From an uncultured Thermoanaerobaculia bacterium (GTDB lineage: Bacteria; Acidobacteriota; Thermoanaerobaculia; Thermoanaerobaculales; Sulfomarinibacteraceae), in NCBI GenBank assembly GCA_964440565.1, contig CAYTTB010000006.1, positions 3,199 to 67,198 on the forward strand: a stretch of 64,000 nucleotides of DNA, in the 5' to 3' direction. This document shows positions 5,238-44,619 of this stretch, in pieces; position 1 is the stretch's first letter; the number at the start of each line of letters is the position of its first letter. The notes beneath the pieces are model-generated. The model was not told the origin of the DNA and searched no databases. It worked only from the letters and a program-made list of their open reading frames with translations. The position numbers and the translations under genes were made by a program.

Positions 5238-5806
5238 TGCACCCCCCGCGCGATTGTACGGCCGGCCACCCGGACCGGCAACCGCGCCGCCTCCGCCGGG
5301 CCGCCGGCGGCGAGCCAGTTCTCCCCTGGCTCACCGCGGCGCACCCGGCCCTCGGCCACGGACGCACCTCGCTCGCCGGGGCGCCCGTCCCGACGGGCCC
5401 GACCGCGCCTCGCTCCGCGGCCGCTCGAGCCGCGTGACGACCCGCGGCACGGAGCCCGCGCGGTCGGCGGACGGCAGCGTCCACCCCGGACCGGCGGCAA
5501 CGCGCGCGGGCGCGGCGGCCGAGAGCGCGTCGAGGGCACGATCACGGACGCGGGCCCGGAAGCCGTCCCGGAGGTGGGGGCCGTCCCGCCGCAAGAGGAG
5601 TGTCCCCACCTCGACGCTCCGGCGCCGGCGCCGCCAGGGGCCCTCGAGCGGCCGGCGGCGGGGCCCTCGCCGCGCGGTGGTACGCTGGGGCGTGGCCCGC
5701 CCGCCGCGGCGCGGCGCCGGCCGGGAATCGCGCGCCGCCGCCGGCGGTTGCCGCAGGGCGGGAGCCGCCGCAGGGCGGTCGGCCCCGCCGCGAGGAGGAT
5801 CGTGCC

Positions 5807-23604: not shown

Positions 23605-24595
23605 GCGTCCCTCCCCGCGGCGCCCTCCCACCCGGTCCGTACAGGTGGCGCTTGTGGAGGTAGAGGAGACGCTCCTGGTTGAGGCGGATCCTGTCGAACA
23701 TGTCGGCGAGCAGGCCCACCCCCGCCACCAGGATCCCGGCGAGATCGAGCCCCCCGCCCACGAACCCGAGCACCTTGTACGGGGTCAGCGCCCCCGTGCT
23801 CAGGTAGTGGTGGAGGAGGAAGCCCAGCGCCGCGGTGCCCAGCGCCACGAGCACGGCGGCGAGCGCCCCGAAGAAGCGGAGCGGCCGGTAGTCCCGCGTG
23901 GTCCTGGCGACGATGGCGAGGCTCTGGAGGGCGTAGCGGACGAGGTTGCCCGCGACGCGCGACCGCCGGCCGGGGAAGTACCGGACCCGCACCGCGACCT
24001 CCTCGACCCGCAGCCCCTTGAAGGAGAGGTCGAGGATCGTCTCCTGGGTGTAGGTGAAGGTCCCGAACAGGTTGAGGTGGAGCAGCGCCTCGCGCGAGTA
24101 GGCGCGGAAGCCGCACGAGACGTCGCCCAGGCGTACGCCGCACAGCACCCGCAGCAGCCGGGCCATCCACAGGTTGCCCCAGTACTTGGCCAGGGGCATC
24201 CCGGCCGGACGGCGCGGCCGGCCCCGGAACCTGTTGCCGGTCACGAGATCCGCCCGCCCCTCGACGATGGGGGCCACCAGCTCCGGGATCTGGGCGGGAT
24301 CGAACTGGCCGTCCGCGTCCACCGTGACCAGCACGTCGGCCCCGTCGTCGAGCGCCACCTCGAGAGCGGTGCGGAACGCCCGGCCCACCCCCTCGTTGCG
24401 CCGGTGGCGCACGACCCGCGCGCCGTGCGCGACGGCCACCTCGGCGGTGCGGTCGGCGCTGCCGTCGTCCACGACCACGACCGCCGCCGCGGGCATCGCC
24501 TCCTGGACGGCGTCCACGACGCCGCCGACCGTCGCCTCCTCGTCGTACGCCGGCACGGCCACCACCACGCGGAGGTCACCCGAGGTCGGGCTCAT
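23567..24595 (-). CDS. GT2 polyprenyl-phosphate glycosyltransferase (DPM1/ArnC-like) with C-terminal TM helices
   Basis: Starts at the MSPTSGDL part of track ORF 23567..26254. Motifs: VVAVPAYDEE, VVVDDGSADRT, TVDADGQ (DXD). Two C-terminal TM helices. ATG 24595 overlaps the upstream stop by 4 nt. Confidence 0.85.
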   Translation of the reverse strand: MSPTSGDLRVVVAVPAYDEEATVGGVVDAVQEAMPAAAVVVVDDGSADRTAEVAVAHGARVVRHRRNEGVGRAFRTALEVALDDGADVLVTVDADGQFDPAQIPELVAPIVEGRADLVTGNRFRGRPRRPAGMPLAKYWGNLWMARLLRVLCGVRLGDVSCGFRAYSREALLHLNLFGTFTYTQETILDLSFKGLRVEEVAVRVRYFPGRRSRVAGNLVRYALQSLAIVARTTRDYRPLRFFGALAAVLVALGTAALGFLLHHYLSTGALTPYKVLGFVGGGLDLAGILVAGVGLLADMFDRIRLNQERLLYLHKRHLYGPGGRAPRGGTLSFPDSGPASRR

Positions 24596-30079: not shown

Positions 30080-30784
30080 ATGGGACGGTGGCGATACACC
30101 CTGATCGCGCTGGTGGCGGTCGCGGTGGGGATCGCGTCGGTGGTGCTGGCGGGGTCGGTGGCCGGCACCAAGCACGATCTCTCGACCAACTTCGACCAGT
30201 ACTCCAACCGCGTGTGCGTGTACTGCCACACGCCACACTTCGCCAACACCACGTTGAGCTACCAGGCCCCGCTGTGGAACCGCTACGTGGACGTCTCCAA
30301 GACGTTCACGCCGTACTCGAGCGACACCATGGACACCACCCCGGGCGACGTGCGGACCACGGTCTCCATCCTCTGCCTCGGCTGCCACGACGGCACGCTG
30401 GGGACCGCGGTGGTCAACGGGTACACCGGCAGCGACAAGCACGACCTGGTCAACGCCCCCGGCCCCGGCGGCATCCCCGACACCACCTCCTGGCCCAACT
30501 GCGAGCGGTGCCACCCCGACAAGTACCACGGCGGCCCACCCGTGCAGTGGATCGGGACCGACCTCTCCAACGATCACCCCATCACCATCTCCTACCCGAC
30601 CCCCTCGCAGGACCCCGACTTCACCACTCCCCCCGATCCCGTCAGCGGCTGGAGCGACGTTCCGCTCTATGACGGTCGCATCGAGTGCCCCACCTGCCAC
30701 GAGCCCCACGACGCCACGTACGCCCCGTTCCTGCGGATGGACAACCAGAACAGCGCCCTCTGCACGCGCTGCCACGTCAAGTGA
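30080..30784 (+). CDS. small pentaheme c-type cytochrome (paralog family with 51018..51665 and 55436..56116)
   Basis: 234 aa with an N-terminal signal/TM. Five CXXCH motifs: CVYCH, CLGCH, CERCH, CPTCH, CTRCH. Shared family motifs: GTKHDLS, VCVYCHTPH, PLWN, LCLGCHDGT, GTDLSNDHPI, and the C-terminal NSALCTRCHVK. Confidence 0.85.
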   Translation: MGRWRYTLIALVAVAVGIASVVLAGSVAGTKHDLSTNFDQYSNRVCVYCHTPHFANTTLSYQAPLWNRYVDVSKTFTPYSSDTMDTTPGDVRTTVSILCLGCHDGTLGTAVVNGYTGSDKHDLVNAPGPGGIPDTTSWPNCERCHPDKYHGGPPVQWIGTDLSNDHPITISYPTPSQDPDFTTPPDPVSGWSDVPLYDGRIECPTCHEPHDATYAPFLRMDNQNSALCTRCHVK

Positions 30785-31967
30785 CCGCGGGCGGCTCGGC
30801 CCCCGCCCCGCGGGAGGCCGCGGCCCGGACCGGTACCCGGGAGGACACGAAGTGGGCGGTGCCCCGCCGCTCGAGACAGCGCCGGAGGGCCCCCACCACC
30901 TCGGGATCGAACTGGCTCCCCGCGCACCGCTCGATCTCCTCGAGCGCCGCCTCGGGAGTGCGCCGCCTCCGGTACGGCCGCGGCATGACCATGGCGTCGA
31001 AGGCGTCGCAGACGCCGATGACGCGGCTCTCCAGCGGGATCTCGTTCCCGCGGAGACCGTCGGGATAGCCGCTTCCGTCGAGACGCTCGTGGTGCCCCCG
31101 GATCAGCGGTGCGAGATCGCTCAGCAGCGGAATCTCGCCCACCATCTCGGCCCCGAGGACCGGGTGGCGGCGGACCAGAAGCCACTCGGCGGAGCTCAGC
31201 GATCCCGCCTTGTTGAGGACCCGCTCCGGCACGCCGATCTTGCCGATGTCGTGGAGCGAGGCCGCGACCTCCAGCCGCCGGAGGCTCGCCCACCCGAGGC
31301 CCAGCTCTTCCCCGAGGTGGGCGCTCAGGTGAGCCACCCGCGCCGAGTGGCCCCGGGTCACCGCGTCCTTGGCCTCGAGCGCGGTGGCGAGGCCGCGGAT
31401 GATGCCCAGGAGGTTGCGGGCCTCGGCCTCCCGGTACCGCCTGCACCTGAGCCCCAGCGCCAGGCTCGCCGCCAGCGCCTCGGCGGCCAGCAGGTCGTCC
31501 TCCCCGAGCGCCCGGGGCTCCGGGCTCGCCAGCGTGAGTACGCCGAGGAGCTGCCCCTGGTACTCGATGGGCACGCTCACCGCGCTCAGGCGCTCGTACC
31601 CGAGCGCCGAGACCGGGGTGAACCTCCGGTCGGCCGTGATGTCGTGCACGAGGACCGGGCGCCCGAGCGCGGCCACGTACCCCGAGAGCCCCTCTCCCAG
31701 GACCACCTCGCCCCGGCCCGCACCACCGCCCCCGTCGAGCCCGCGCGCCGCGGCCACGCGGAGCTTGCGGCCGTCGTCGTCCACGACGAGCAGCAGGCCC
31801 ACGGGTACGCCCAGGTGGCGGCACGCGGCCTCCAGCGCCTCGTCGTGCGCCCTCTCGCTGTCTCCCACCAGGCAGTGCCCCGCCTCGGCCACCGAGCGCA
31901 GGCGGGCCACCGCACGCGCCGCCACCTCTTCAGGCCCCCCCACTGGCCGCTGCGGATCGTTACCCAA
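30777..31967 (-). CDS. GAF domain-containing HD-GYP phosphohydrolase (c-di-GMP phosphodiesterase type)
   Basis: N-terminal GAF domain (GEGLSGYVAALGRPVLVHDITADRRF). The HD-GYP domain carries HSARVAHLS, LHDIGKIGVP and HHERLDGSGYPDGL. TTG start at 31967 lies 5 nt after GGAGGG. Its stop overlaps the convergent cytochrome stop by 8 nt. Confidence 0.88.
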   Translation of the reverse strand: MGNDPQRPVGGPEEVAARAVARLRSVAEAGHCLVGDSERAHDEALEAACRHLGVPVGLLLVVDDDGRKLRVAAARGLDGGGGAGRGEVVLGEGLSGYVAALGRPVLVHDITADRRFTPVSALGYERLSAVSVPIEYQGQLLGVLTLASPEPRALGEDDLLAAEALAASLALGLRCRRYREAEARNLLGIIRGLATALEAKDAVTRGHSARVAHLSAHLGEELGLGWASLRRLEVAASLHDIGKIGVPERVLNKAGSLSSAEWLLVRRHPVLGAEMVGEIPLLSDLAPLIRGHHERLDGSGYPDGLRGNEIPLESRVIGVCDAFDAMVMPRPYRRRRTPEAALEEIERCAGSQFDPEVVGALRRCLERRGTAHFVSSRVPVRAAASRGAGAEPPAVT

Positions 31968-32057: not shown

Positions 32058-33587
32058 TCAGGCGTCCGGGTCGGCGGCGTCCCGCGCATGACCCGGGGCG
32101 TCGCCCAGGACGATACCGGCACGCTCGAGCATCCGCTCCATCGCCGGTGGCATCCCGGCCTCCGCCGCCATCCGCCGCATCTGCTCCCCCAGGTAGCTGT
32201 GCTCGATGAGGAGCTTGAGCACCGCCACCATGAACCGGCGCTTGTGCCCGGGCAGCTCCCCGAGGCGGCGGAACCGATCCCTGAAGAACTCCCCCGTGGC
32301 CCGGTGCAGCTCGCGGTTCATCTCCTCGACGGTCATCGCCCGCGGCTTCACCACCGCCTCCACGAGGTTGTACCTCCGGTAGTCGCGCGTCGCGAGGTAC
32401 GGCTCCAGCTCCGGGTAGATCTCGGCGTACGGCCACGGGGTGATGGCCAGGAAGAACGCCATGTCCGGCCCGTACCACTTGGCGAGCTCCACGGTGGCCC
32501 GGATGCTCTCCGGCGTCTCGTCCGGGGTGCCGAGGACGAAGCTCGTCTCGCTCACCATGCCGTGCGCGTTGATCAGCTCGATGGCGCGACGCGACTCCTC
32601 CACCTTCACGTCCTTCCGGTAGAGGTCGAGCGTGGCCTGGCGGGTGGATTCCACGCCGACGTAGATGTGCGCCACCCCGGCCTCGGCGTACCGCTCCAGG
32701 ATGTCCTCGTCGCGCACGATGTCCACCACACGGGTCTCCAGCAGCAGCTGCACCCCGACCTCGCGCTCGACGAGAAGGTCGAGGATGCGCTCCCACCGCT
32801 CCCGGGAGACCGTGGGCGTCTCGTCCGAGAGCATCGCCACCCGGACGTCGTACCGGTCGCGGAGGTGCTCGAGCTCGGCCACGAACGACTCCGGCGACCG
32901 CGCGCGCCAGCTCCGCTCCCAGAACAGCTGCTGCGAGCAGAAGGAGCACCGCTGGCGGCACCCCCGGGAGGAGCAGACGATGGCCAGCCGCCCGTCGGGG
33001 TACGGGCGGTACCGGTACGGCGTCCAGTCGAGCAGGTCCCACGCCGGGTGCAGGGCATCCAGGTCCGCCACGTACCCCCGCGGCGGGGTGCACACCGGGC
33101 GGCCCTCGTGCCGGAAGGCGATCCCCTCCACCTCCGCCAGGCTGCCGCCGGCGGCGACCGCCCGCACCAGGTCCGCGAGGGTCGGCTCCCCCTCCCCCCG
33201 GACGACGACGTCCACGTCAGGATCCTGCGACAGGATCTCGCGCCAGCAGAAGGTGGGGTGGACGTTGCCCAGCACCGTGAGGATTCCCGGGGCGATCCGC
33301 TTCGCGGTGGCGCACACCTCGCGGGCGTCGGGCTCCATCGCGGTGATCGCCGTGACCCCCACGATGTCCGGACGCCACGTCTCGATCTCGCGCGCGATGT
33401 CCTCGTGCGTGTGGTCGAGCGACATCGCGTCGTAGATCCGCACCTCGGCGCCCGCCTCCCGCGCGGCGCCGGCGAGGTAGACGAAGTGGAGCGGCAGCCA
33501 GGTCCCGGCCGACTCCACGACGCCCGAGTGGTACGGTGGCGTCACCAGCATCACCCGGGGCCGCCTCCGGCGCGTCACGACCTCCAT
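32058..33587 (-). CDS. B12-binding-domain radical SAM protein (BchE-like class B)
   Basis: Real start taken as ATG 33587 (MEVVTRRRRPRVMLVTPPY). N-terminal cobalamin-binding Rossmann region (VRIYDAMSL...DIVGVTAITA). Radical SAM cluster motif CSSRGCRQRCSFC (CX3CX2C). 509 aa. Last gene of the minus-strand cytochrome operon, 8 nt after the preceding stop. Confidence 0.85.
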   Translation of the reverse strand: MEVVTRRRRPRVMLVTPPYHSGVVESAGTWLPLHFVYLAGAAREAGAEVRIYDAMSLDHTHEDIAREIETWRPDIVGVTAITAMEPDAREVCATAKRIAPGILTVLGNVHPTFCWREILSQDPDVDVVVRGEGEPTLADLVRAVAAGGSLAEVEGIAFRHEGRPVCTPPRGYVADLDALHPAWDLLDWTPYRYRPYPDGRLAIVCSSRGCRQRCSFCSQQLFWERSWRARSPESFVAELEHLRDRYDVRVAMLSDETPTVSRERWERILDLLVEREVGVQLLLETRVVDIVRDEDILERYAEAGVAHIYVGVESTRQATLDLYRKDVKVEESRRAIELINAHGMVSETSFVLGTPDETPESIRATVELAKWYGPDMAFFLAITPWPYAEIYPELEPYLATRDYRRYNLVEAVVKPRAMTVEEMNRELHRATGEFFRDRFRRLGELPGHKRRFMVAVLKLLIEHSYLGEQMRRMAAEAGMPPAMERMLERAGIVLGDAPGHARDAADPDA

Positions 33588-33595
33588 ACGCCCCC

Positions 33596-33934
33596 CTATC
33601 CTCCCAGCATCCGCACCGTCCGCCACTGCCACCAGGTGCCGAGTCCGAACACCACGAGGAGCACCACGTGCTTGATCACCAGCAGCCGCCGTCTGGCGCG
33701 CTCCGCGTCGGGCCCGTAGACGTCGGGGACGTAGGTGAACCCGCGCCCGGCGCCGGTGAGCAGGACCACGGCGATGGCCGCGAGCCCCATGTGGAGATGA
33801 GCGCGGGCCAGCTCCGCGACGAGCTCGCCGGGCCCCCGGCGGGCGAGCACCCACACCGCCACCACCGTCGCGGCCCAGAACCCCGCCGCGAGGTCGTGGA
33901 CGAACCCGATCACGATGGAAAGCGCCGTCCGCAT
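33596..33934 (-). CDS. small integral membrane protein (3-4 TM), unknown function
   Basis: 112 aa from ATG 33934 within track ORF 33596..34873. Hydrophobic helices include ALSIVIGFVHDLAAGFWAATVVAVWVL and VIKHVVLLVVFGLGTWWQW. It starts 9 nt after the ccsA stop. Confidence 0.5.
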   Translation of the reverse strand: MRTALSIVIGFVHDLAAGFWAATVVAVWVLARRGPGELVAELARAHLHMGLAAIAVVLLTGAGRGFTYVPDVYGPDAERARRRLLVIKHVVLLVVFGLGTWWQWRTVRMLGG

Positions 33935-33942: not shown

Positions 33943-34764
33943 TCACTGGAAGTACGCGGAGTGCAGGGTCGGCATCAGGAACGGCAGCACCAGGAGCGTG
34001 AGCACCACCAGCGCGAAGGCGCCGACGGCCGACCAGGCGGTGGCCCTCGGGCCCATCCGGAAGAAGCGCCGGGCGTGCAGCAGCGAACCGTAGGCCAGCC
34101 AGGTCACCAGAGACCACGTCTCGATGGGGTCCCACCCCCAGTACCGCCCCCACGCCTGGTTCGCCCAGATGGCGCCCGCCGCGATGTTCACGGTCCAGAA
34201 CACCATCCCGAATCCGACGGCGCGGACCAGCGTCGCGTCCAGCACCTCCACCGGCGGCACGCGGTCCGCGAACCGGCCCCACGCCCGGCCGCCGCGGAGC
34301 ACGAGCACCGCCAGTCCCACGGAGACCAGGAAAGCCGCCGCCGAGAGCTTCGCGAAGGTGACGTGGAACACCAGCCAGATCGAACGCAGGGTCGGCGGCA
34401 CCTCGCGGATCGCGGGGTCCGCGAACTGCGCCAGCGCCACCATCAGGATCGCCGCCGGCAGGACGACCACGGCGACGGGCAGCCATCGCGGCCGGAAGCG
34501 GACGAAGAGGAGCAGGGCCGCCACCATCACCCAGGCGTCCGACGACAGCACCTCGAACCGCATCATGTACGGCCCATGGCCGGCGGCGATCCAGCGGCCG
34601 ATCAACGCCGCCCCGTGGACGGCGAGACCCCCGGCCGCCGCCCACAGCCCGGCCCGCGCCCACCTCTCGCGCCCGAACAGGGTACCCGCGGTGACTCCCA
34701 CCGCGGCGAGGATGTAGACACCCACCGCCGCCCACTGGAGCCCGATCTGCCAGGCCGCGCTCAC
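33943..34764 (-). CDS. ccsA: cytochrome c biogenesis protein CcsA (System II heme-handling subunit)
   Basis: Trp-rich heme-binding motif WANQAWGRYWGWDPIETWSL with flanking conserved His residues (FHV, LLHARR). GTG 34764 forms a GTGA overlap with the upstream lipoprotein stop. The rest of track ORF 33943..35220 is shadow. Confidence 0.85.
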   Translation of the reverse strand: MSAAWQIGLQWAAVGVYILAAVGVTAGTLFGRERWARAGLWAAAGGLAVHGAALIGRWIAAGHGPYMMRFEVLSSDAWVMVAALLLFVRFRPRWLPVAVVVLPAAILMVALAQFADPAIREVPPTLRSIWLVFHVTFAKLSAAAFLVSVGLAVLVLRGGRAWGRFADRVPPVEVLDATLVRAVGFGMVFWTVNIAAGAIWANQAWGRYWGWDPIETWSLVTWLAYGSLLHARRFFRMGPRATAWSAVGAFALVVLTLLVLPFLMPTLHSAYFQ

Positions 34765-35267
34765 CGCCCGCTCCCGTGCGGTGCTCGGCCCCCACCCTCC
34801 CATCCGGGGAGACGGCGGCCCACCCTGGGCGGCTCCCGGAACCAGGTACGCGCCACGATCCACTCCCCCCCACGGCGCTCGAGGCGGTACGCCACGCGAT
34901 ACTCGTCCTCGGACTCCGGACCCGTGGGCCGGCCGCTCCCCAGCTCCCGCTCGCGGTACCGCCACCGCTCGTGCGTCACCGCGGTCACGGAGCCGTCCTC
35001 CTCCCGGCGGAACCCTTCCAGCTCGAGCTCGACGAGCTCCGCATCCAGCACCCGGCCCATGTCGAGCCGGACACCGATCAGACCGGTGATCTTCTTCGCC
35101 TCCTCCGGGCCGGCCACCGACTCGACCAGTGCGGGGTCCGCGGTGCGGTACGCCTCGACCACAGTGCGATTGTAATTCAGAATCGCCTTCTCCACGGTCG
35201 AGGCCGCGGGCCGCCCGCACCCTGCCACCGCGCCCGCCAGCGCCACCGCCGCCGCGAGCCTACGCAT
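34761..35267 (-). CDS. lipoprotein of unknown function inserted between ccsB and ccsA
   Basis: 168 aa. Signal plus lipobox MRRLAAAVALAGAVAGC. The soluble domain reads AILNYNRTVVEAYRTADPALV...EWIVARTWF. Both ends are translationally coupled. Confidence 0.6.
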   Translation of the reverse strand: MRRLAAAVALAGAVAGCGRPAASTVEKAILNYNRTVVEAYRTADPALVESVAGPEEAKKITGLIGVRLDMGRVLDAELVELELEGFRREEDGSVTAVTHERWRYRERELGSGRPTGPESEDEYRVAYRLERRGGEWIVARTWFREPPRVGRRLPGWEGGGRAPHGSGR

Positions 35268-36498
35268 CCGTGCACGCCCTCTCCCGCGCGGCGATCCGCT
35301 CGAGCAACGTCGCGCCGAGCGGGACGAACCGGCGCGGCCACACGGCCACCGTCACCCGCTCGACGTCCCCCTGGGGCTCCACCACCACCGCGACGTCGGC
35401 CGGTACCACCGCGAACAGCAACGTCACCCCCAGCACCACCAGCCCCATGCCGAGCCACGCCAGCACCAGGAACGGATCCTGGCCGCCCAGCAGCCGCACC
35501 CAGGGACGCACCCCCCTGTGGGTGACGCGTCCGAGTCCGGGAACGAACGCCGACTCCCCGGGCGCGAGCGACCCCACCCACACCGCCACCCCATCGCGGA
35601 GGAGGCGCAGGGCCGCCACCCCCGAGGGCGCCACCCGGACGCGCAGCTCCGATCCTCCGCCCAGCCGGGCCCGTCCGCTCGCCGCGGCGCCGGGGCGGTG
35701 CTCCGCCAGCACCGCGAGCCGGCGGCTGCCCACCTCGAGCAGGGCGGCGACCCCGTGCCGCTGGTCCAGCCACACGGTTCGCGAGCCCAGGTGCAGCGGC
35801 CGGTTGATGGCGAGGCGGCGCTGCCGGCCGGCCACGGAGACCACCGCCTCCAGCGCCCTGAGACGTCCACCCTCGCCGTACTCGGCGTGAACGCGCCGCA
35901 GCGTGAGGGGCCGCCGGAGTGCGAACGACCGGCCCAGCGCTCCCGGCCATTGCGCCGCCCACGCCGAGGAGACGGGGCGCAGCGTCTCGCCCTCCAGGAG
36001 GTCCACCACCCCGCCCGCCCCCAGGAGCGCACGCAGCATCCCCGCGATCGCCACCAGCAGGAGCCCGAGGTGCAGGAGCGGGGAGCCCGCCAGACCCAGG
36101 CGGCCGTGCCGCCTCACCCACGTCCTTCCCCCACCCGCCGGCCGCGTGAAGACCGTCCTGTGTGGCGCGGCGAGCAGCCGCCCGGGGGTGGGCCGGCGGC
36201 GCCACTCGCGTGGCAGGCGCCCGAGCAGGTCCCACGTCACCACCGCCAGCGAGGCGGTGCACGCCGTGACCACCGCCACGAACGGCCACGATGCGAACAC
36301 GTGGTCGAGGCCCAGCGCCGCGGCCCATCCGGGCGTGGGAGGCCCCGCGGCGCCGCGCTGCGGGATCGCCGCCCCCACCACCGCCAGGACGGCGAGCGCG
36401 CCGAGCTCCGAGGCGATCACCGCGCGGCGGCGCAGCACCCTCCCCGGACGGAGTCGCCGGGGGAAGGCCGCGGCGGCGCGCGCGGCGGTGACCGCCAT
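35260..36498 (-). CDS. ccsB: cytochrome c biogenesis protein CcsB/ResB-like
   Basis: ATG 36498 overlaps the giant cytochrome stop (TGATG). N-terminal TM with the VVGAAIPQ motif, a second TM (FASWPFVAVVTACTASLAVV), a large periplasmic domain and a C-terminal TM. This is the typical ResB architecture. Confidence 0.7.
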   Translation of the reverse strand: MAVTAARAAAAFPRRLRPGRVLRRRAVIASELGALAVLAVVGAAIPQRGAAGPPTPGWAAALGLDHVFASWPFVAVVTACTASLAVVTWDLLGRLPREWRRRPTPGRLLAAPHRTVFTRPAGGGRTWVRRHGRLGLAGSPLLHLGLLLVAIAGMLRALLGAGGVVDLLEGETLRPVSSAWAAQWPGALGRSFALRRPLTLRRVHAEYGEGGRLRALEAVVSVAGRQRRLAINRPLHLGSRTVWLDQRHGVAALLEVGSRRLAVLAEHRPGAAASGRARLGGGSELRVRVAPSGVAALRLLRDGVAVWVGSLAPGESAFVPGLGRVTHRGVRPWVRLLGGQDPFLVLAWLGMGLVVLGVTLLFAVVPADVAVVVEPQGDVERVTVAVWPRRFVPLGATLLERIAARERACTDA

Positions 36499-39400
36499 CA
36501 GTTCCAGTTCTCCGTCGCCGCCCGCCTGTGGTTGCCGGTGCACGCCGCCTGACAGTTCCGCTTGTTGTAGTTGTTGTACGCCGACGCCTTGGTGAACGAC
36601 TGGATCTGCATGGTGTTGAGATCACCGTTGTAGGCGTACCGGGGCGGCATCGCAGAGTCCCGGTCACCGATCAGGCGCGACATCTTGCCCCCGTGCGGGA
36701 TCACGATGTGGCAGGAGTAGCACCTGATGCTGGTCCGGTTGTGGTCCCCTTTCGAGTGCACGTTGTTCACGTTGACGTGGCAGTTGGCGCAGAAGCTCTG
36801 GTCGTACTGGTTCAGCTGCAGGTTCGGCCACGCGGTGTTGGGCCCGCGCAGCAGGAACTGCGCCGCCGAGCCGTGCGGTCCCTGGACCGCCCCAGCCGCC
36901 GTGTCGTCGTTGTCGTGGCAGTCCGAGCACATCATGGTCTGGTTGCCCGGGTTCGTATTCCACGGTGCCTTGAGCTGGGCCGCGGCCAGCGGCGTGGTGT
37001 TGGGGCCCGAGCCGGTCGTGGCCACCACCGGATGGAACGACCGGTTGTTGGGGTTGAACTCCTGCGCCACGTCGGTCTCCGGTGCGTTGGCCTGGCTCCC
37101 GTTGGCCGAGATGCCGTTCGGGGGGTTCACGCCGAAGGCGAAGGAGCTGTGGCACTTGAAGCAGATCTCGTACTCGTAGGTGGCCTCGTTCACCGGCGTG
37201 AAGTTGGACGCCGTGGTCCCCTGGAAGTTCGCCAGGCCGGCGTACGCGAAGCTCACCCCGGAGACCCCCTTGAGCGGGCTGTCCGCCGCGATCTGGTTGC
37301 GGCTGGCGGTGGCCGTGGCGCTCCAGTCGTGCCGGGTCGGCCCGGCGGCGTGCGGCGCGTGACAGTCGAGGCAGCTCACGTGGCGGCTGGCACCCGAATA
37401 GGTGCCGTCGTTGTAGCCCGCGCCCTGCTCGGCCACGGTGTCGTGCACGGTGTCGGCCTCCACCGGGTGGGCGACCGTCTTGGCCATCACCGTGGCCAGG
37501 TCCTTCCCCGAGAGGTCCTGGCCCTTCGTCCCGTTGCCGTGGCAGTTGTAGCAGATGAAGTCGGCGGGGGTGCCGGCTGGGTTGATGGAGCCCGCGAGCA
37601 GCTTCGGGTAGTCGGAGAAGTGCACCGCACCGAGGCCGGTCCCCGAGGCATCGGGGAACCCGTCGGTGCGGTTCGCGTGGCACTTGGTGCAGTTGCGGTC
37701 GAACGTCGAGCCGTCGTGGAGGGTGTACGTCCAGGTCCCGTACGCGTTGGCGGTGTAGTTGTGGGCCGAGGCGGCAAAGGTCGCCGCGTCGATCGCCGGC
37801 CGCCCGGTGGCCACCGCGTTGCGGTGGCACGAGACGCACATCCCGCCGCTTCCCGCTCCGGCGTCGAAGTCGGTCCTGGCCGGCGACCCGGCGGTCACGA
37901 GCCCGCCGCTGTCCCGGGCAACGGAACGGCTCGCCGCCGTCGAGGCGTCGGTGTGGACGTCGTACTCGTGGGTCGTGGAGCCCGGCGTGTTGTGGACGTG
38001 GTCGGTGTGGCACATGTTGACGCACGAGCGGTCCGCGGGAGCCACCGTGTCGAGCGGCGCGGTCCAGCTCACGCCGGAGTCCTGGAACGAGTCGTTCACC
38101 TCCCGGACGTTGCCCAGCGCGTGCCGGCTGGTCTTGGGCACGGCCCCCGTCATCCCCTCCCAGATGGTGGCGTGACACACGGAGCAGTCGGCGCGGCCCT
38201 TGCTCTCGCCGGCGGCGAACCCGTTCGAGTGCGGGTGACAGCCCACGCAGCGGGTGGCCTGGTTGTGGGTGTGGTCCCCGCCGGAGGTGTCGTTGCGGTA
38301 GTGGTTCGTCTTGGTGTGACAGACCTCGCAGATCCCGTCGGAGTAGTCGGTCAGCGAGGCACCGAGGTAGCCGCCCGAGGCCGGGTTGGTCGCGCCGGCG
38401 CGGTCGTCCTGGCGGAACACGACCGTCTTCACCCCGCTCGAGGGCGTGCGGAGCTGCTCCCGGATCAGGTAGATGTTCGTCGTCCCGTGCGGCGTGTGGC
38501 AGGTGAGGCAGTCCACCGCCCAGGACCCGTAGTTGCCTCCGGTCCGCTGGCTGGAGTGGGTCGGGATGTTGTGGCAGTCGAGGCAGATCTGCGATCCGTG
38601 CGTCCGCCGCAGGAGGGTCCCGCCCCCCGCCGGGCGCCCGCCGGCGTTCGCCACCTTGAACCCGCGGCCCGCCCGCGCCACGTTGCCCGCGGCGTCGGTG
38701 GCCTCCACCTCCAGGCGGTGGAAGCCGCCCGCGAGCACCGTGGTGTCGAGGGTGATCTCGTACACCGTGCAGGAGGGCCCGCAGTCGTAGTTCGCGCTCG
38801 CCGTCACCGCCGTCGACCAGCTCCCGCCGTCGAGGCGCCAGCGGACCGCCGAGCCCCCGGCCAGCCCGCCCTCGTCGTACACCTGCACCTTCGCCACCTC
38901 CGTCCCGCCCACGACGGCCCCCTCCGCGGGCACCAGGAAGACGATGGTCGGGGCCGCGGTGTCGGCGCCGCAGGCGGGGGTCGTGTACGGCCCCAGCACC
39001 TCGGGGTTGGTTCCGGTGACGCCGTCGGGGTCCGTGTAGGTCACCCGCAGCCAGTACTGGGTGCCCGGCGTCAGGTTGGTGACCAGGCAGACGCGCGGCG
39101 ACGGTCCCGTCACGGCGGCGCACGCCGTGGTCCCCGGCCACGCGTTCGTGGTGTTGTACTCCACGGCCATCGAGCCGTCGCCGTCCTCGTCGCCGGTGAA
39201 GTCGCCCGTCACGGTGATCTGCCGGCACGCCGACACCACGGCCGAGTTGGCGACGATGGTGGTGTCGTTCACGGTGCAGGCGGGAGTGGTGACCGGCCCC
39301 ACCACCTGCGGGTTGGTCCCGCTGACACCGTCGGGGTCGGCGAAGGTCACGCGGTAGTAGTACGTCGTCCCCTCGGTCAGGCCCGTATCCACGCAGACGC

Positions 39401-40994
39401 GCGGCGAGGGCCCGGTGACCCCGGAGCACACCGCCGTCCACGGGCCCGTCGCCGAGGCCCCGCGCTCGAAGGTGGTGCTCCCGTCCCCGTCGCTGTCCCC
39501 GTCGAACGGGGCCTGCACCGTGATCTGGCTGCACGAGTCGGCGGCAGCGGTCGCCGTGCCCACGGTGGTGCCGGGGACGGGCGCAGTCGGCGTGTGCGGC
39601 CCCGTCTCGCTCCCCACGGAGTAGTTCCCGCAGCCGTCGCGTGAGAAGATCTTGTAGTAATACCCGACACCGTTGACGAGACCCGTGTCGGTGAAGCTCG
39701 CGCCCGCGCCGACGTAGACCACCGTCGCGGTGCCGATGGTCTGCCCCGCGGTGTAGGTGGTCCCCTCCGCCGGCGCGACCCCTATCGAGACCGTGTCGCG
39801 GAGGATGAGGACATCGGCGAAGTCGGCGTCCCCCGGGTTGGTCCACGAGAGCGAGACCTGGCCGTCGCCCGGGGTCACCGTGCCCCACGTGGCGTCTCCC
39901 GGCGACAGGTTGTCCACGGTGATCGTCCCGTCCGTCGTGTCGTTGTACCGGACGGTGTTCGCGAGCGCATGGGCGATCCCGGTGACGGACGCGGTCACGG
40001 CGTACGCAGCGCCGGGCGGCGCGGGCATCGCCGCGTGTGTCCTGGGCACGACGTAGATCCGGTACGGGGTCGGGGTCCCGCTGGGCGCACTGAGCGACAG
40101 ACCGCTCACCGTCCACTGGTCGCCGCTCGGCGTCGTGGTGCTGCCGAGCACCGTGGTGCCGCTGCCGTCCCGGACCTGGACCTCGCCCACGCCCGCCGAC
40201 GTGCCGGCGGCGAGGGTCACGGTCACGGCACTGATCGTGTCCGCCGAACCCGCCGTGACCGAGAGATCGAACCCGTCCGCGAAGAGCGCTCCGTCACCGG
40301 GGCACGCCGAGGCGGAGGGCGCCTTCGCCGTGCCGTCGCCCACCACCGTCTCGGGCGTCACCGGCGTCGGGAAGCGGACCCACGCGTTGGCGCTCTCCAC
40401 CTCGAACTGGAACGCGTAGTCGCCGTTGTTGTCGTAGTTCACCCAGTACTCGATGACGAGGTAGTCGTTCGGCCCGAAGGTGTAGGAGGTCGTCTGGGTG
40501 GACAGGATGTTCTCGGAGTAGGTGCCGGTGCCCGTCGCGAAGTTGAACGTCCCGGAGACGGAGAACAGCAGCGTCCCGGACGTTCCCGTGCTGGCCCGGA
40601 ACACCCGCGCCTGGACGGTGGCGGTTCCTCCGGCCTGGTACTGGGTGACCCGGATCTGCCAGTTGAACGCCCAGTCCCCGGCGGGGATGACCCCATCGAT
40701 CGGGCTGGCACTCGCCCATCCGTACTGCGGGTTGGCACCCTGGGTGTCGGAGCCCAGGTGGTCCTGCCCCGGGTAGAAGAGGTAGGTGGTGCCGGGCCCC
40801 TGAGCCGGTGCCGCCACGAACAGCCCGGTCGTGAGGTCGGCGTTGTTGCCGGCGGTGGCGCTCATCTGCCAGTACTTCGTCCCGAAGGCGTGCTGGCTGT
40901 TTCGCAGGTAGAGCGTCGTCTGCGCGCCGGCGATGCTCGCCGTGCCGAGCAGGAGCAGCGCGAGCGCGATCCCGTGCGAGCCGCGGCGGATCAT
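36498..40994 (-). CDS. giant exported FN3/Ig-domain multiheme c-type cytochrome (13 CXXCH + 1 CX3CH)
   Basis: 1498 aa from ATG 40994 (ATGA overlap with the upstream stop). Signal peptide MIRRGSHGIALALLLLGTASIAGAQ. About 780 N-terminal residues are heme-free beta-rich modules (FN3-like, Ig-like). The C-terminal ~700 aa carry CLDCH, CLTCH, CEVCH, CVGCH, CSVCH, CVNMCH (CX3CH), CVSCH, CTKCH, CYNCH, CLDCH, CFKCH, CSDCH, CANCH and CYSCH. Confidence 0.9.
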   Translation of the reverse strand: MIRRGSHGIALALLLLGTASIAGAQTTLYLRNSQHAFGTKYWQMSATAGNNADLTTGLFVAAPAQGPGTTYLFYPGQDHLGSDTQGANPQYGWASASPIDGVIPAGDWAFNWQIRVTQYQAGGTATVQARVFRASTGTSGTLLFSVSGTFNFATGTGTYSENILSTQTTSYTFGPNDYLVIEYWVNYDNNGDYAFQFEVESANAWVRFPTPVTPETVVGDGTAKAPSASACPGDGALFADGFDLSVTAGSADTISAVTVTLAAGTSAGVGEVQVRDGSGTTVLGSTTTPSGDQWTVSGLSLSAPSGTPTPYRIYVVPRTHAAMPAPPGAAYAVTASVTGIAHALANTVRYNDTTDGTITVDNLSPGDATWGTVTPGDGQVSLSWTNPGDADFADVLILRDTVSIGVAPAEGTTYTAGQTIGTATVVYVGAGASFTDTGLVNGVGYYYKIFSRDGCGNYSVGSETGPHTPTAPVPGTTVGTATAAADSCSQITVQAPFDGDSDGDGSTTFERGASATGPWTAVCSGVTGPSPRVCVDTGLTEGTTYYYRVTFADPDGVSGTNPQVVGPVTTPACTVNDTTIVANSAVVSACRQITVTGDFTGDEDGDGSMAVEYNTTNAWPGTTACAAVTGPSPRVCLVTNLTPGTQYWLRVTYTDPDGVTGTNPEVLGPYTTPACGADTAAPTIVFLVPAEGAVVGGTEVAKVQVYDEGGLAGGSAVRWRLDGGSWSTAVTASANYDCGPSCTVYEITLDTTVLAGGFHRLEVEATDAAGNVARAGRGFKVANAGGRPAGGGTLLRRTHGSQICLDCHNIPTHSSQRTGGNYGSWAVDCLTCHTPHGTTNIYLIREQLRTPSSGVKTVVFRQDDRAGATNPASGGYLGASLTDYSDGICEVCHTKTNHYRNDTSGGDHTHNQATRCVGCHPHSNGFAAGESKGRADCSVCHATIWEGMTGAVPKTSRHALGNVREVNDSFQDSGVSWTAPLDTVAPADRSCVNMCHTDHVHNTPGSTTHEYDVHTDASTAASRSVARDSGGLVTAGSPARTDFDAGAGSGGMCVSCHRNAVATGRPAIDAATFAASAHNYTANAYGTWTYTLHDGSTFDRNCTKCHANRTDGFPDASGTGLGAVHFSDYPKLLAGSINPAGTPADFICYNCHGNGTKGQDLSGKDLATVMAKTVAHPVEADTVHDTVAEQGAGYNDGTYSGASRHVSCLDCHAPHAAGPTRHDWSATATASRNQIAADSPLKGVSGVSFAYAGLANFQGTTASNFTPVNEATYEYEICFKCHSSFAFGVNPPNGISANGSQANAPETDVAQEFNPNNRSFHPVVATTGSGPNTTPLAAAQLKAPWNTNPGNQTMMCSDCHDNDDTAAGAVQGPHGSAAQFLLRGPNTAWPNLQLNQYDQSFCANCHVNVNNVHSKGDHNRTSIRCYSCHIVIPHGGKMSRLIGDRDSAMPPRYAYNGDLNTMQIQSFTKASAYNNYNKRNCQAACTGNHRRAATENWN
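38970..39569 (-). repeat. tandem ~100-aa FN3-like module duplication inside the giant cytochrome
   Basis: Two adjacent units (39276..39569 and 38970..39275). Each carries an acidic DG(D/E)GS motif (DGDSDGDGS / GDEDGDGS). Both then share the block TGPSPRVC(V/L)..(G)LT.GT.Y..RVT(F/Y).DPDGV(S/T)GTNP.V.GP.TTPAC. Confidence 0.6.
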
Positions 40995-42013
40995 GGGCCG
41001 TCCTCCGTCTGCGTGTTGCCGTCCGCGTAGTGGACCCCGTGGCAGCTCAGGCACTGCACCCGGCCCGCGGCATCGAGGAGGTAGTCGTCACTCGCGATGC
41101 CGTCGCCCCCCGCCCCCTGGACGGAGCCGTCGCCGTCGAGCGGCGCCGTGCGATCCCACCCGTGGCCGTTGCTGCCCAGCGCCACCCCCACCGGGTGGCT
41201 CTTCACCGACCCGTCGTAGGTCTCCACCGCCGTGTGATCCATGGCCCACGCGCGGTGGCAGTCGCGGCAGAACCGGCTCCCCGCGGTGTTGTCCCCGGTG
41301 TCCAGCGGCACCCTCAGGAACGGGTAGGATGCCGTGAACCGCCACCGCTCGCCCACCGCGTAGGTGCCGGAGCCGAAGGTGATCGTGACCCCGCTGTCGA
41401 GCGCGATCGGGGTGCCGATGGTGATGCTCCTGTCGGGGAACCAGGTGGCGCCCTCGTCCTTGGAGTACTTGAAGCTCGAGTCCGCCACCGTGATCTCGAT
41501 CAGGTACGAGACACCGGACGCCCCGGTGTACGATCCACCCGCGGTCACGGTGCCGGTGCTTCCCAGGGAGGTCAGCCTGGCGACGGCACTGATCCTCGCG
41601 CGGCCTCCGTTCGCCGCCGAGGCCGCGTGCTGGTTGTGGCAGGTGGAGCACACGATGGAGCCCCCGTACACCCGCAGCGCCATCTCCTGGTTGGCCGGGA
41701 GCTGGGTGCCGACCGTCGGGTTGACCGCCGCCACCCCGTAGGCGTGGGAGATCCCGCTCTGCCCCAGCACGGCCATGTCGCCCGAGTTGATGGGCAGCGC
41801 GGAGGCGGTCCCCGTGGGGTTGTGGCACGACTGGCAGAGGTTCACGTTGCCGGCCACCGACGTGAGCGTCACCCCGGGGGCCGAGTGTCCCGTGTGGCAC
41901 GAGTCGCAGTCCATCCCCGCGCCCCAGTGGGGCGGATCCACGGCGGCCGCCGGTACCGAGACCGCGAGCGCCACGATCCCGACCCACACGCCTCGCCGTG
42001 CATGCGCCATCAT
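40991..42013 (-). CDS. pentaheme c-type cytochrome with a central non-heme beta domain
   Basis: 340 aa from ATG 42013 (MMAHARRGVWVGIVALAVSVPAAA signal). CXXCH motifs: CDSCH, CQSCH, CSTCH, CRDCH, CLSCH. A ~110-aa heme-free insert lies between hemes 3 and 4. The upstream part of track ORF 40991..42268 is junk. Confidence 0.85.
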   Translation of the reverse strand: MMAHARRGVWVGIVALAVSVPAAAVDPPHWGAGMDCDSCHTGHSAPGVTLTSVAGNVNLCQSCHNPTGTASALPINSGDMAVLGQSGISHAYGVAAVNPTVGTQLPANQEMALRVYGGSIVCSTCHNQHAASAANGGRARISAVARLTSLGSTGTVTAGGSYTGASGVSYLIEITVADSSFKYSKDEGATWFPDRSITIGTPIALDSGVTITFGSGTYAVGERWRFTASYPFLRVPLDTGDNTAGSRFCRDCHRAWAMDHTAVETYDGSVKSHPVGVALGSNGHGWDRTAPLDGDGSVQGAGGDGIASDDYLLDAAGRVQCLSCHGVHYADGNTQTEDGP

Positions 42014-42015: not shown

Positions 42016-44619
42016 TCACACCCCCCGTCTCGAGAGCACCGCCACGCCCGCGGCGGCGATCAGCAGCACGAGCAGCGCCCTCCCCGCCGGGCCCTGGACG
42101 GGTATGCCCGTGGCGGTGACGCCCGTCCCCTCGACGTACGCCACGTCCGGGCTCGACGGGGCGTCGCTTCTCACCTCGAGCACGGCGGTCCTGGTCCCCT
42201 CGGCGGTGGGCGCGAAGACGATCCTGAGCTCGCACGACCCACCCGGATCGAGCGTCCGGCCCGTGCACCCGTCCGCCGCCACGTCGAAGTCAGCGGGCTC
42301 GCGGCCGGAGAACGTGACCGCGCCGAGGTTCACCGCCGCTCCACCCACGTTCGAGACCGTCAGCACCCGCTCGAGCGACCTCCCGCCCACGGGCACGGCC
42401 CCGAAGACCACGACGCTCGCCGACAGGTCCAGGGAGGGACCCGCGATCACGCCCCGTCCGGCGAGAGCCACGGACACCGAGCCGGCCGGGGCGGCGAGGG
42501 CGATGCGGAGCGACCCCGCCCAACGGCCCGTCCCCTCCGGCCGGAAGCTCACGGACACCGAGCACACGCCGCCCGCCGGCACCGTACCGCCGCAGGTGGA
42601 GCCCACCACCCGGAACGGGGCCGCTGTCGCGACCTCCGACACCGCGAGCGGCCCCGCGCCGACGTTCCGGAGGTTCACCACCAGCGGAGCGCTCTCCACG
42701 CCCACCTCCTGGGGCCCGAAGTCCAGCGCCTCGGGCAGGGCCAGCGGCTGCCCGGCCCCCACCGCGGCGCCGTACCCCTCGAGCGCCACCGTCTGGGGCG
42801 TTCCCGGGGCGTCGGTGCGGAACGCCAGGGTCCCCTCCCGGGCGCCCGGCACCGCCGGCACGAACGTCACCGCGACCGTGCAGCTCTCGCCGGGGGCGAG
42901 CTCCCACGGGCAGGTGCCCGACACACGGAAGTCGCCCGTGGCCTCGACCCCGAAGAGGGCGAGCGGCGCCGACCCGGCGTTGGTGAGCGTGACCTCGCGC
43001 GGCCCGCCCACGGCCCCCACCGCGACGCTGCCGAAGGCGACCGCCGTCGGGTTCACGGCAGCGGCGGGAGCCGCGAGCTGGGTGTCCGAGAGGCGGAACA
43101 CCTCGAGCCGCCCGGTGTTCGCCGAGGCCACCACCAGCCGGCCCACGTCCTCCGCCACGGCAGCGTCGGTGGGCGTCTTCAGCTCGCCCAGCTCGTCACC
43201 GTACGTGCCCAGGATGTCGCGGAGCTGCCCGTCGAGGGTGAAGCTCTGCACCCGGTCCTGGAATGCATCCGCAGCGAACACCAGCCCGCCCGCGCTCGCC
43301 ACCGCTCCCTCGAGCTGGCCGAACTCGCCGGGCCCGCCCCCGAGGCCGCCGAACGACCCCAGGTACGTCCCGGTGCCGTCGTACCGGCGCACCACGCCGG
43401 CCACCGTGTCGGCCACGGCGAAACCACCTCCCGGAAGACCCTCGACGTCACGGGCCCCGAGGAGCTCGCCCGGCCCGCTTCCGTAGCCGCCGAAGCCGAA
43501 CAGCGCCTTCCCGGCCTCGTCGAACACCACGACCCGCCCACGGTCCCCGTAGAGCACCGCGTACCGGCGGCCCGTCCGGTCCACCGCCACGGCCAGCGGC
43601 GACACCGACCCGTCGCCCGGGTCCAGGTCACGCACCGGCCGCCCGAGCCGGTTCACCACCCTCGCCCCCGACGGGGTCGCCAGCACCAGGTTGCCGTCCC
43701 AGTCCACCTCGAGGTCGTGGACCGGCCCGAGCGGGAGAAAGGTCACGACCTCGCCCGAGGCGAGCCCCACCACCGCCACCCCCTCGAGCCCGTCGTCGGC
43801 GACGTACACCAGGCCGCCGGGCCCCGCCGCCACCCGGTGGGGCGCCACCAGCCCCGCGCTGATGAACTTCTCGGGCACGGCGTCGGTCACCGCCACGCCG
43901 ACCGTGGCGGTCGCGATCCCTCCGTTGCCGTCATCGGCGGTGCAGGTGACGGTCACGATCCCAGGGGTGGCCGGGGCCGAGAGCTCCGCGGTGAACGACC
44001 CGGTGGGGGTGATCGTCCCCGCATCGGCCGTCCACGTGAGCGTGACCGGGTCGCCGTCCGGGTCCGACACGGTCGCCGTGATCACGCTTGTCCCGCCGGG
44101 CAGCACCGCCTGCGGATCCGCCACCAGCGCGTCGAACACCGGGGGCTGGTTGCCGCCGGTGGTCACCTGGATCTGGAGGGTGGCGGTGGCGGTCTGCCGC
44201 CCGCCGCAGAGGAAGGTGCCGCTGTCGGCGATGTCCACCGTGATGGTGTAGCTCCCCTCGACGGCCGGCGCCTGCCAGGTGGCGGTGGTGGTGTACGGAG
44301 AGGCGGAGACACCGGGGTCGATGGCGGTGAACGTTCCGCCCGAGGCCGACCACGATGTGAGGTCGGCCCGGATGTACAGTCCACATCCGCTCGTACACGT
44401 GCCGGTGCAGTCGGGGTCGTGGGCGTCCAGCACCAGCGACACCGTGCCACCGGGAGCCACGGACGGCGGGCTCGCGGTGAACGCGTCCACCACCGGCGCC
44501 GCCGCGCGCGCCACCCCCGGGGCGGCGAGCAGCGGGGCCACGATCCCGGCGGCCAGGACGGCGCGCGGGATTCTCCCCAACTCGACCGGCGGAATGCGAA
44601 AAATTCCGCGCTTCGCCAT
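42016..44619 (-). CDS. exported multidomain surface protein: Ig/PKD-like domains + NHL-type propeller + three ASH/choice-of-anchor-D-like beta-sandwich repeats + C-terminal hydrophobic anchor
   Basis: 867 aa from ATG 44619; the 5' 503 codons of track ORF 42016..46128 are antisense to the kinase gene. Signal peptide present. Ig-like modules (TATVSDPDGDPVTLTWTA). NHL-like blades (GSGPGELLGARDV, GGGPGEFGQLEGAV, DRVQSFTLDG). Three repeats of the type FG.V.VG......L.N.G...L........F......C.....PG.SC...V.F.P. The tail reads IPVQGPAGRALLVLLIAAAGVAVLSRRGV. Confidence 0.8.
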   Translation of the reverse strand: MAKRGIFRIPPVELGRIPRAVLAAGIVAPLLAAPGVARAAAPVVDAFTASPPSVAPGGTVSLVLDAHDPDCTGTCTSGCGLYIRADLTSWSASGGTFTAIDPGVSASPYTTTATWQAPAVEGSYTITVDIADSGTFLCGGRQTATATLQIQVTTGGNQPPVFDALVADPQAVLPGGTSVITATVSDPDGDPVTLTWTADAGTITPTGSFTAELSAPATPGIVTVTCTADDGNGGIATATVGVAVTDAVPEKFISAGLVAPHRVAAGPGGLVYVADDGLEGVAVVGLASGEVVTFLPLGPVHDLEVDWDGNLVLATPSGARVVNRLGRPVRDLDPGDGSVSPLAVAVDRTGRRYAVLYGDRGRVVVFDEAGKALFGFGGYGSGPGELLGARDVEGLPGGGFAVADTVAGVVRRYDGTGTYLGSFGGLGGGPGEFGQLEGAVASAGGLVFAADAFQDRVQSFTLDGQLRDILGTYGDELGELKTPTDAAVAEDVGRLVVASANTGRLEVFRLSDTQLAAPAAAVNPTAVAFGSVAVGAVGGPREVTLTNAGSAPLALFGVEATGDFRVSGTCPWELAPGESCTVAVTFVPAVPGAREGTLAFRTDAPGTPQTVALEGYGAAVGAGQPLALPEALDFGPQEVGVESAPLVVNLRNVGAGPLAVSEVATAAPFRVVGSTCGGTVPAGGVCSVSVSFRPEGTGRWAGSLRIALAAPAGSVSVALAGRGVIAGPSLDLSASVVVFGAVPVGGRSLERVLTVSNVGGAAVNLGAVTFSGREPADFDVAADGCTGRTLDPGGSCELRIVFAPTAEGTRTAVLEVRSDAPSSPDVAYVEGTGVTATGIPVQGPAGRALLVLLIAAAGVAVLSRRGV

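Follow-up and report, generated by a model that had tools for sequence, protein, structure and literature searches.

The 64-kb stretch of DNA analysed here (hereafter the window), which comes from an uncultured Thermoanaerobaculia bacterium and has a G+C content of 74%, encodes at 32058..33587 on the minus strand a 509-residue BchE-like radical S-adenosylmethionine (SAM) enzyme of the cobalamin-dependent class B, recognized by its open reading frame (ORF), its Pfam and NCBIfam matches and its fold, and called rSAM below. We propose, with a probability of roughly 0.5, that rSAM performs a tetrapyrrole-directed accessory step of a dedicated System II (ResB/CcsA) module for cytochrome c maturation; any specific reaction that one may assign to it is much less probable than that. 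The proposal builds on the kinship of the protein, which by sequence comparison is closest to a porphyrin side-chain enzyme, on the conserved position of its gene right behind the heme exporter/synthetase genes and near heme-synthesis genes, and on its fusion or adjacency, in related loci, to a carboxylate-activating enzyme. The original prediction had held that the enzyme may modify heme, a heme precursor or a residue of the cytochromes, and this interpretation is supported, as neither the family placement nor the synteny refuted it.

The limits that had been given for the gene are correct and its strand is the minus strand (ATG at 33587-33585, TGA at 32060-32058): the plus-strand reading of the same interval yields a junk translation and was therefore rejected. 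As predicted, the start codon follows the small membrane protein gene located behind ccsA, with exactly 8 nt between the stop codon of the latter (TAG, 33598-33596) and the ATG, and the rSAM gene was called independently on two public contigs encoding an identical protein. The B12-binding domain and the CX3CX2C motif that had been noticed were both recovered: the former covers residues 23-140 (33168..33521, minus strand; PF02310, E 4.4e-27), the radical SAM core covers residues 206-369 (32481..32972, minus strand; PF04055, E 1.8e-24) and the motif for the [4Fe-4S] cluster is seen in the translation at C210, C214 and C217 (32937..32960, minus strand). This motif (C210-x3-C214-x2-C217, GCRQRCSFC) is invariant in 12 relatives and is also kept in BchE. 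Pfam and the AlphaFold2 model (mean pLDDT 76.9, pTM 0.80) agree on a Rossmann-type B12 domain and, behind it, a radical SAM domain folded as a partial TIM barrel, i.e., the full class B architecture. Compared by Foldseek, the model matches AprD4, TsrM, CysS, TokK, OxsB and MgmA with E values of 1e-17 to 1e-20 and TM-scores of 0.57-0.68; no close relative with a solved structure was found among the PDB sequences. The fold alone is no proof of cobalamin binding, because AprD4 shares it and reportedly does not bind cobalamin. No transmembrane helix is predicted in the AlphaFold model and no signal peptide is seen in the sequence, so rSAM is probably cytoplasmic and would work at the face of the membrane on which heme is synthesized and from which CcsBA takes it up (PMC6299221, PMC10663686). 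Its nearest relatives belong to metagenome-assembled genomes (MAGs) of Thermoanaerobaculia/Thermoanaerobaculales and Anaeromyxobacteraceae.

The best NCBIfam model for rSAM is that of BchE (TIGR02026), with 400.8 bits and an E value of 9e-120, a score under the curated cut-off of 481.35 bits and a match stopping at model position 457 of 497. On the same model, 13 further relatives from the clade of rSAM score 364-439 bits and five proteins of the BchE clade 756-828 bits, these calibrators being the products of four bchE genes from phototroph plasmids (three of which lie beside puhABCE/hemN/bchJ or bchJ alone) and the representative P0133. In a neighbour-joining tree the window protein groups with the representatives P0121-P0129, apart from a second clade made up of the BchE proteins. 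Sequence identity with true BchE amounts to 35-38% over about 450 residues, compared with 44-77% inside the window clade and 63-71% inside BchE. In a library of representatives at 50% identity, the window clade amounts to about nine full-length clusters, and full-length scores fall from 431 to 339 bits between it and the first BchE representatives. The alignment contains 74 positions conserved across both clades and 12 that discriminate the window clade from BchE; in addition, a C-terminal tail with an A-C-G motif is present in all six aligned BchE proteins and absent from all 17 aligned members of the window clade. The A-C-G motif is invariant in the true BchE-clade sequences, including those at L083:4019-5680, L084:3998-5650, L085:3022-5067 and L086:3013-4659; we know of no described role for it. 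The gene neighbourhoods also differ: true bchE genes adjoin puhABCE, hemN or bchJ, while neither the window nor 84 related loci contain homologues of puhA/B/C/E, bchJ or hemN, and no phototroph is named among the 80 source records of the related loci. For BchE, too, the PDB sequences include no structure.

Other families are more distant. The hopanoid models reach 172.8 bits for HpnR (cut-off 650) and 113 bits for HpnJ (cut-off 577.6), the NCBIfam models of peptide and protein methylases at most 136 bits, far under their cut-offs, and a HemW-type model gives an E value of only 0.0014, while the HemN structure matches the core barrel alone. The BchE-like placement given in the original prediction therefore holds in the sense that the tetrapyrrole enzyme BchE (401 bits, under its own curated cut-off) is the nearest characterized family and that lipid and hopanoid methylases score far lower. 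Taken together, these comparisons indicate that rSAM is a member of an uncharacterized, tightly conserved, BchE-sister-like clade, and not BchE itself. One clade member, P0125 (L089:8001-11228), is 1075 residues long; behind its rSAM part lie a hydrophobic stretch, a repeat of the form (NG)n and some 500 G/S/R-rich residues that resemble a beta-barrel. It may represent a genuine fusion or result from a missed stop codon or frameshift in the assembly.

In the window, rSAM stands at the end of a run of minus-strand genes that has the features of System II, namely a CcsA with a WWD motif and conserved histidines, plus a ResB-family partner. The run starts with a called gene (~42016..43974) for a secreted protein with Ig-like (HYDIN/ASH-type) domains, in which the sequence alone suggests NHL-like repeats, and continues with a 340-residue cytochrome with five CXXCH motifs (40991..42013) and a 1498-residue multiheme cytochrome with 13 CXXCH and one CX3CH (36498..40994). 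Next come the ResB/CcsB-like protein (35260..36498; PF05140, 66 bits; 412 residues as called on the source contig), a 168-residue lipoprotein with the lipobox LAGC (34761..35267), CcsA, the heme-handling/cytochrome c synthetase subunit of System II (33943..34764; PF01578, E 1e-32, 114 bits; canonical WWD motif WGRYWGWDPIETWS), and a 112-residue three-helix membrane protein, weakly CopD-like (33596..33934). The CcsA is divergent, since it scores 153 bits on TIGR03144, below the cut-off of 187.6. The lipoprotein has no Pfam or NCBIfam match, and homologues of it occur in 28 of the 80 related loci described below. An unusual heme-binding motif that could explain a dedicated lyase was looked for in the 1498-residue cytochrome, where only the 13 CXXCH and the one CX3CH were found. 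The CX3CH site, CVNMCH, lies at residue 1011 among the 13 CXXCH; the N-terminal region of about 800 residues is free of heme motifs and consists of repeated modules with paired cysteines and weak, sub-threshold matches of the fn3 type.

Scanning a single genome per species yielded 351 stretches that encode a relative of rSAM, of which the best 80 were examined; 47 of them, each from a different species, have at least 5 kb on either side of rSAM and form the full-flank set. Neighbours were counted by targeted BLAST and hidden Markov model searches, single-linkage clustering of ORFs having merged everything into one giant cluster through spurious high-GC ORFs. Synteny with ccsBA and multiheme genes proved to be conserved: ccsA lies within 10 kb of rSAM in 35 of the 47 full-flank loci and within 5 kb in 26, and 44 have, within 10 kb, either ccsA or else an ORF containing three or more CXXCH motifs. 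By our own estimate, ccsA would be expected by chance in about 3% of random 21-kb stretches (at most about six copies of ccsA in a genome of about 5 Mb). The small membrane protein is encoded within 3.5 kb of rSAM in 32 of the 47. The labels of the 80 loci include Thermoanaerobaculia, Binatota, Anaeromyxobacteraceae and other Myxococcota, Nitrospirota/Thermodesulfovibrionales, Geobacteraceae (Geomonas, Geobacter argillaceus, Geotalea), Desulfuromonadales, Desulfarculales and Desulfurivibrio. Conserved linkage to ccsA/resB and multiheme cytochromes extends over MAGs and isolates labelled Acidobacteriota, Myxococcota, Desulfobacterota, Nitrospirota and Binatota, and reaches the Firmicute Thermincola; the link between rSAM and System II spans Gram-negative and Gram-positive metal reducers. 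In Anaeromyxobacter terrae, for example, the order is NHL/PKD protein, two cytochromes, ResB, CcsA, a 171-residue protein and rSAM, and the order resB-ccsA-(small transmembrane protein)-rSAM is also found for distant clade members (44-55% identity) on metagenome contigs. The CcsA proteins encoded beside rSAM share only 26-41% identity with one another, against 44-77% for rSAM, and the pairing is therefore not simply that of one operon inherited whole.

Two loci bring the module next to genes of heme synthesis. In the Gram-positive iron reducer Thermincola ferriacetica, a cytochrome with at least 54 CXXCH is followed by ResB, CcsA, rSAM, an NHL protein, a cytochrome with 11 CXXCH and a second ResB-CcsA pair, behind which lie a sirC-like gene, hemA and hemC. 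On L097, a Firmicute-like contig of 49% G+C, ResB, CcsA and an rSAM 50% identical to that of the window are followed by a GGDEF/EAL gene, a second ResB-CcsA pair and a paralogous B12 radical SAM gene, and the run ends directly upstream of sirC-like, hemA, hemC, cobA/hemD, radical SAM, hemB and radical SAM/SPASM genes, which form a heme-synthesis operon, possibly of the siroheme-dependent (Ahb) type. The triad of resB, ccsA and a B12 radical SAM gene is thus duplicated in tandem on this contig (L097:537-8437); the second radical SAM enzyme (P0141) shares just 35% identity with the first, showing that a paralogous lineage keeps the same gene context.

The 112-residue protein belongs to a large family: a profile search gave 1123 matches (more than 1100 clusters), while a word-indexed search gave five. 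Annotation of the family goes at most as far as 'uncharacterized membrane protein', and all 45 members tested match CopD weakly, below threshold (best E 5e-6). Its model (pLDDT 81) consists of three long helices, at residues 2-32, 37-61 and 75-111. The invariant residues, F11, H13, D14, G18 and W20 in helix 1, G61 and R64 in the loop and K88 and H89 in helix 3, include the motifs F-x-H-D, T-G-x-x-R and K-H. In the model, H13 and H89 lie at similar depths on parallel helices, a placement that would suit the binding of heme or a metal.

A second partner is a LuxE-like carboxylate-activating domain, which is fused to rSAM in T. ferriacetica and T. potens and encoded by a separate gene 1.5-5.5 kb upstream of rSAM in 15 of the 47 full-flank loci. 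Characterized LuxE is a fatty-acid-protein ligase, and the Vibrio enzyme carries its acyl group on a C-terminal cysteine. A conserved C-terminal cysteine motif, C-(P/S/G)-x-(V/I)-(V/A/I)-(D/E)-E-(I/M)-(L/I), is present in 18 of 20 LuxE-like copies (e.g., SCPQVVDEIL or PCSTVADEML), and the C-terminal 90 or so residues of the T. ferriacetica protein (P0128, KNZ71010.1) repeat the 15-residue unit HSHPCSTVADEMLRA five times in tandem; by analogy, these cysteine repeats could be a string of acyl-acceptor sites. We also considered whether the Thermincola fusion belongs to the known extracellular electron transfer (EET) cluster TherJR_1117-1122 / Tfer_0070-0075 and rejected it: the cytochromes flanking the fusion have 11 and at least 54 CXXCH, not 6 and 10.

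The LuxE-like gene also takes part in a second type of cassette, found in Geobacteraceae, Nitrospirota and some Myxococcota. At L095:2678-10387 the order is ccsA, a lipoprotein gene, a 445-residue B12 radical SAM enzyme, the LuxE-like gene (5639-7114, minus strand, ending in the cysteine motif), the small membrane protein and the BchE-like rSAM; a pseudopilin gene is sometimes located between the LuxE-like and the small membrane protein genes. The same cassette type was observed at L019, L021, L034, L051, L059, L060, L062, L063, L065, L067, L069, L072 and L073. The extra radical SAM enzyme and the LuxE-like protein are 75-88% identical across Myxococcota, Geobacteraceae and Nitrospirota, unusually high values between phyla, which suggests horizontal transfer of the cassette. 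Elsewhere in the window, there is neither a LuxE-like gene nor a second B12 radical SAM gene.

These elements can be arranged into a mechanism. With a 5'-deoxyadenosyl radical and cobalamin, rSAM would alter a side chain on heme b or on a late heme precursor at the inner face of the membrane; the reaction would be either a BchE-type oxidation/cyclization of a propionate or a C-methylation. The three-helix protein, with its invariant histidines in helices 1 and 3, might hold the tetrapyrrole or dock rSAM at the membrane. ResB and CcsA, encoded in the same operon as the multiheme cytochromes, would then export the modified heme and attach it to their CXXCH motifs. In the related cassettes, the LuxE-like adenylating enzyme could activate a carboxylate, for instance a heme propionate, as a thioester, and this thioester would parallel the methyl ester on the propionate of the BchE substrate. 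In its most specific form, according to which the clade makes a novel heme derivative (keto-, cyclized- or methyl-) that a dedicated CcsBA fixes into multiheme cytochromes for EET, with the LuxE-like thioester in some lineages, the proposal is tentative and we would rather bet against it.

Several points weigh against a tetrapyrrole-directed role. The function assigned to rSAM rests on homology and gene context. The literature searched reports no modified heme in c-type cytochromes of the carrier groups, and we know of none; in the copies of CcsA adjacent to rSAM, the WWD heme-binding region shows no obvious change that would signal an unusual heme. Because multiheme genes abound in these genomes, finding one nearby is in itself weak evidence, and it is the proximity of ccsA that is the informative part of the synteny. 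Some MAG labels (e.g., Victivallales and Dongiaceae) may reflect binning errors. The small membrane partner scores 26.2 bits in the window on CopD (PF05425), under the gathering threshold of 32.1, its fold has no significant PDB match by Foldseek (best E 1.2), and the CopD-like protein is absent from about a third of the full-flank loci. The characterized relatives of LuxE activate fatty acids, which fits a lipid substrate. Finally, P0123, a member of the window clade, carries a fused SRPBCC lipid/ligand-binding domain, and its gene is found in an unrelated context devoid of cytochromes; it is the one exception found.

Another target that we considered is a protein: rSAM might act in the cytoplasm, ahead of Sec export, to C-methylate or cross-link a residue in an apocytochrome or in some other exported protein encoded by the cluster. 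Class B enzymes do include protein and peptide methylases, with MgmA, the glutamine C-methyltransferase of MCR, among the fold matches and methylases of ribosomally synthesized and post-translationally modified peptides among the weak NCBIfam matches; the clusters that contain rSAM always encode large secreted proteins such as multiheme cytochromes and NHL-repeat proteins, and some cassettes include a pseudopilin gene. We nevertheless consider a protein substrate improbable, given the 401 bits for BchE against at most 136 for the methylase models, a module that directly adjoins heme-synthesis genes, and a most constant neighbour that is ccsA and no single cytochrome family (homologues of the MHC14 type occur in 34 of the 80 loci); moreover, we know of no precedent for the modification of a 1500-residue Sec substrate before its export. 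To a lipid or some other small hydrophobic substrate (a membrane lipid or a quinone, for instance), with the cytochromes linked to it through a shared role in EET or in the cell envelope, we give the same low odds. It would leave unexplained why ccsA adjacency persists across phyla and why hemA, hemC and hemB lie next to the module, no lipid-synthesis genes recur in the loci examined, and the second-tier NCBIfam matches that would speak for it, the hopanoid enzymes HpnR and HpnJ, remain far under their cut-offs. In its favour are the fusion or adjacency to a relative of a fatty-acid-protein ligase, the hydrophobic-ligand domain of P0123 outside any cytochrome context, and the PMT_2-like, tetratricopeptide repeat (TPR) membrane protein and GT2 genes found just downstream in the window.

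Two further explanations keep the tetrapyrrole as the substrate. In one, rSAM serves ordinary heme b synthesis as an alternative anaerobic step, or helps to supply CcsBA with heme, and the product is normal heme; the module indeed adjoins heme-biosynthesis operons in Thermincola and on L097, and several radical SAM enzymes already serve in anaerobic heme synthesis, but the known ones (HemN type, AhbC and AhbD) are not cobalamin-dependent (PMC10114771). In the 80-locus sample, rSAM was moreover found in only some genera of these heme-rich lineages and accompanies particular cytochrome clusters rather than core hem genes; it therefore behaves as an accessory gene, and we regard a role in ordinary heme supply as less probable still than a protein or lipid target. 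The other explanation, that rSAM is a true BchE (chlorophyll cyclase), is effectively refuted. BchE is the best NCBIfam match, and the automatic annotation of JGI gives the name of chlorophyll cyclase to many homologues, a mislabelling that is not found at NCBI, where they are only called 'B12-binding domain-containing radical SAM protein'; yet the score of 401 bits falls short of both the cut-off (481) and the range of true BchE (756-828), the clade is separate, the C-terminal tail is missing, puh, bchJ and hemN are lacking from the window and the 84 loci, and none of the 80 records names a phototroph.

The surroundings of the module in the window provide some additional observations. The original prediction had made rSAM the terminal gene of its operon. 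It is indeed the last gene of the conserved block; nevertheless, a GAF + HD-GYP gene of the c-di-GMP phosphodiesterase type, recognized by Pfam, follows on the same strand 90 nt downstream (30777..31967, minus strand), no intrinsic terminator was detected, and rSAM is thus not provably the last gene of the transcript. No counterpart of the GAF + HD-GYP gene was seen in the 80 related loci. A gene for c-di-GMP turnover lies directly behind rSAM in two unrelated loci, here with GAF + HD-GYP and at L097:3042-4664 with GGDEF + EAL, which may be a coincidence or a regulatory link. A 234-residue cytochrome with five CXXCH (30080-30784, plus strand) is convergent with the GAF + HD-GYP gene, their stop regions overlapping by about 8 nt. 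Directly past it, a run of four minus-strand genes (23567-29784) encodes two TPR membrane proteins (29784-28108 and 28124-26196), a PMT_2-like membrane glycosyltransferase (~26052-24592) and a GT2 glycosyltransferase (~24598-23567). This run looks like a system for protein O-glycosylation or mannosylation, and similar TPR membrane proteins turn up near rSAM in eight other loci. Finally, a sigma-54-dependent response regulator is encoded near the cluster (46163-47524, plus strand), and close homologues (40-47% identity over about 450 residues) lie 0.6-7.5 kb downstream of rSAM at L011, L013, L018, L028, L032 and L055, which points to a regulator conserved among these cytochrome clusters.

Cytochrome c biogenesis, as it is usually taught, exports unmodified heme b and then attaches it through thioether bonds. 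The original prediction knew of no described role for an enzyme of this type in multiheme cytochrome biogenesis, and our literature searches bear this out: in the full texts searched, no description was found of an association of radical SAM enzymes or BchE with multiheme cytochromes, ResB/CcsA or LuxE, nor of one in Geobacter, Anaeromyxobacter or Thermincola. If rSAM does carry out a tetrapyrrole-directed step of System II maturation, a B12/radical SAM step inside System II operons would mean that some bacteria tailor a cofactor or a partner molecule for particular multiheme cytochromes. Such a cofactor-tailoring step would be an addition to cytochrome c biogenesis and a new way of tuning heme potentials, could help to explain the redox tuning and the stability of EET proteins, and would give the recently reconstituted chemistry of BchE a second, non-photosynthetic context. 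The carriers include iron reducers, electricigens and abundant lineages of soils and sediments. The idea is directly testable, because cultures exist of several carriers, namely Thermincola potens, T. ferriacetica, Geomonas spp., Geobacter argillaceus and Anaeromyxobacter terrae.

Among known systems, BchE comes closest, with the same two-domain class B architecture, a similar length and shared positions that include the cluster cysteines and a GEGE motif. BchE converts Mg-protoporphyrin IX monomethyl ester into protochlorophyllide, a reaction for which an enzyme assay has been described (bioRxiv 10.64898/2026.04.29.721654); it acts on a propionate side chain of the metalloporphyrin and is described as membrane-associated (PMC10114771; bioRxiv 10.64898/2026.04.29.721654). 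The window protein differs from it in lacking the C-terminal tail of 60-80 residues, in having resB/ccsA and multiheme cytochromes as neighbours instead of bchJ, puh or hemN, and in belonging to a clade whose carriers are not phototrophs. TsrM, OxsB, TokK, CysS and MgmA (as well as AprD4) have the fold in common with rSAM, but the identity is only 16-22% and their substrates are unrelated. ChuW and HutW are radical SAM enzymes acting on heme or its precursors; those of the HemN type, AhbC, AhbD and NirJ use radical SAM chemistry to act on the side chains of tetrapyrroles in anaerobes (PMC10114771). None of these enzymes is known to be cobalamin-dependent. For the System II part of the module, the nearest parallel is found in Wolinella succinogenes, in which NrfI and CcsA1 are dedicated heme lyase isoenzymes encoded beside their special cytochrome substrates. 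These lyases have no known radical SAM partner and serve unusual motifs (CXXCK and CX15CH), whereas the cytochrome of the window has ordinary CXXCH motifs and one CX3CH. The likeness lies in the gene arrangement: here too, an extra resB/ccsA pair is placed inside a cytochrome operon and not at a housekeeping locus, and Thermincola and L097 each possess two such pairs within a few kb.

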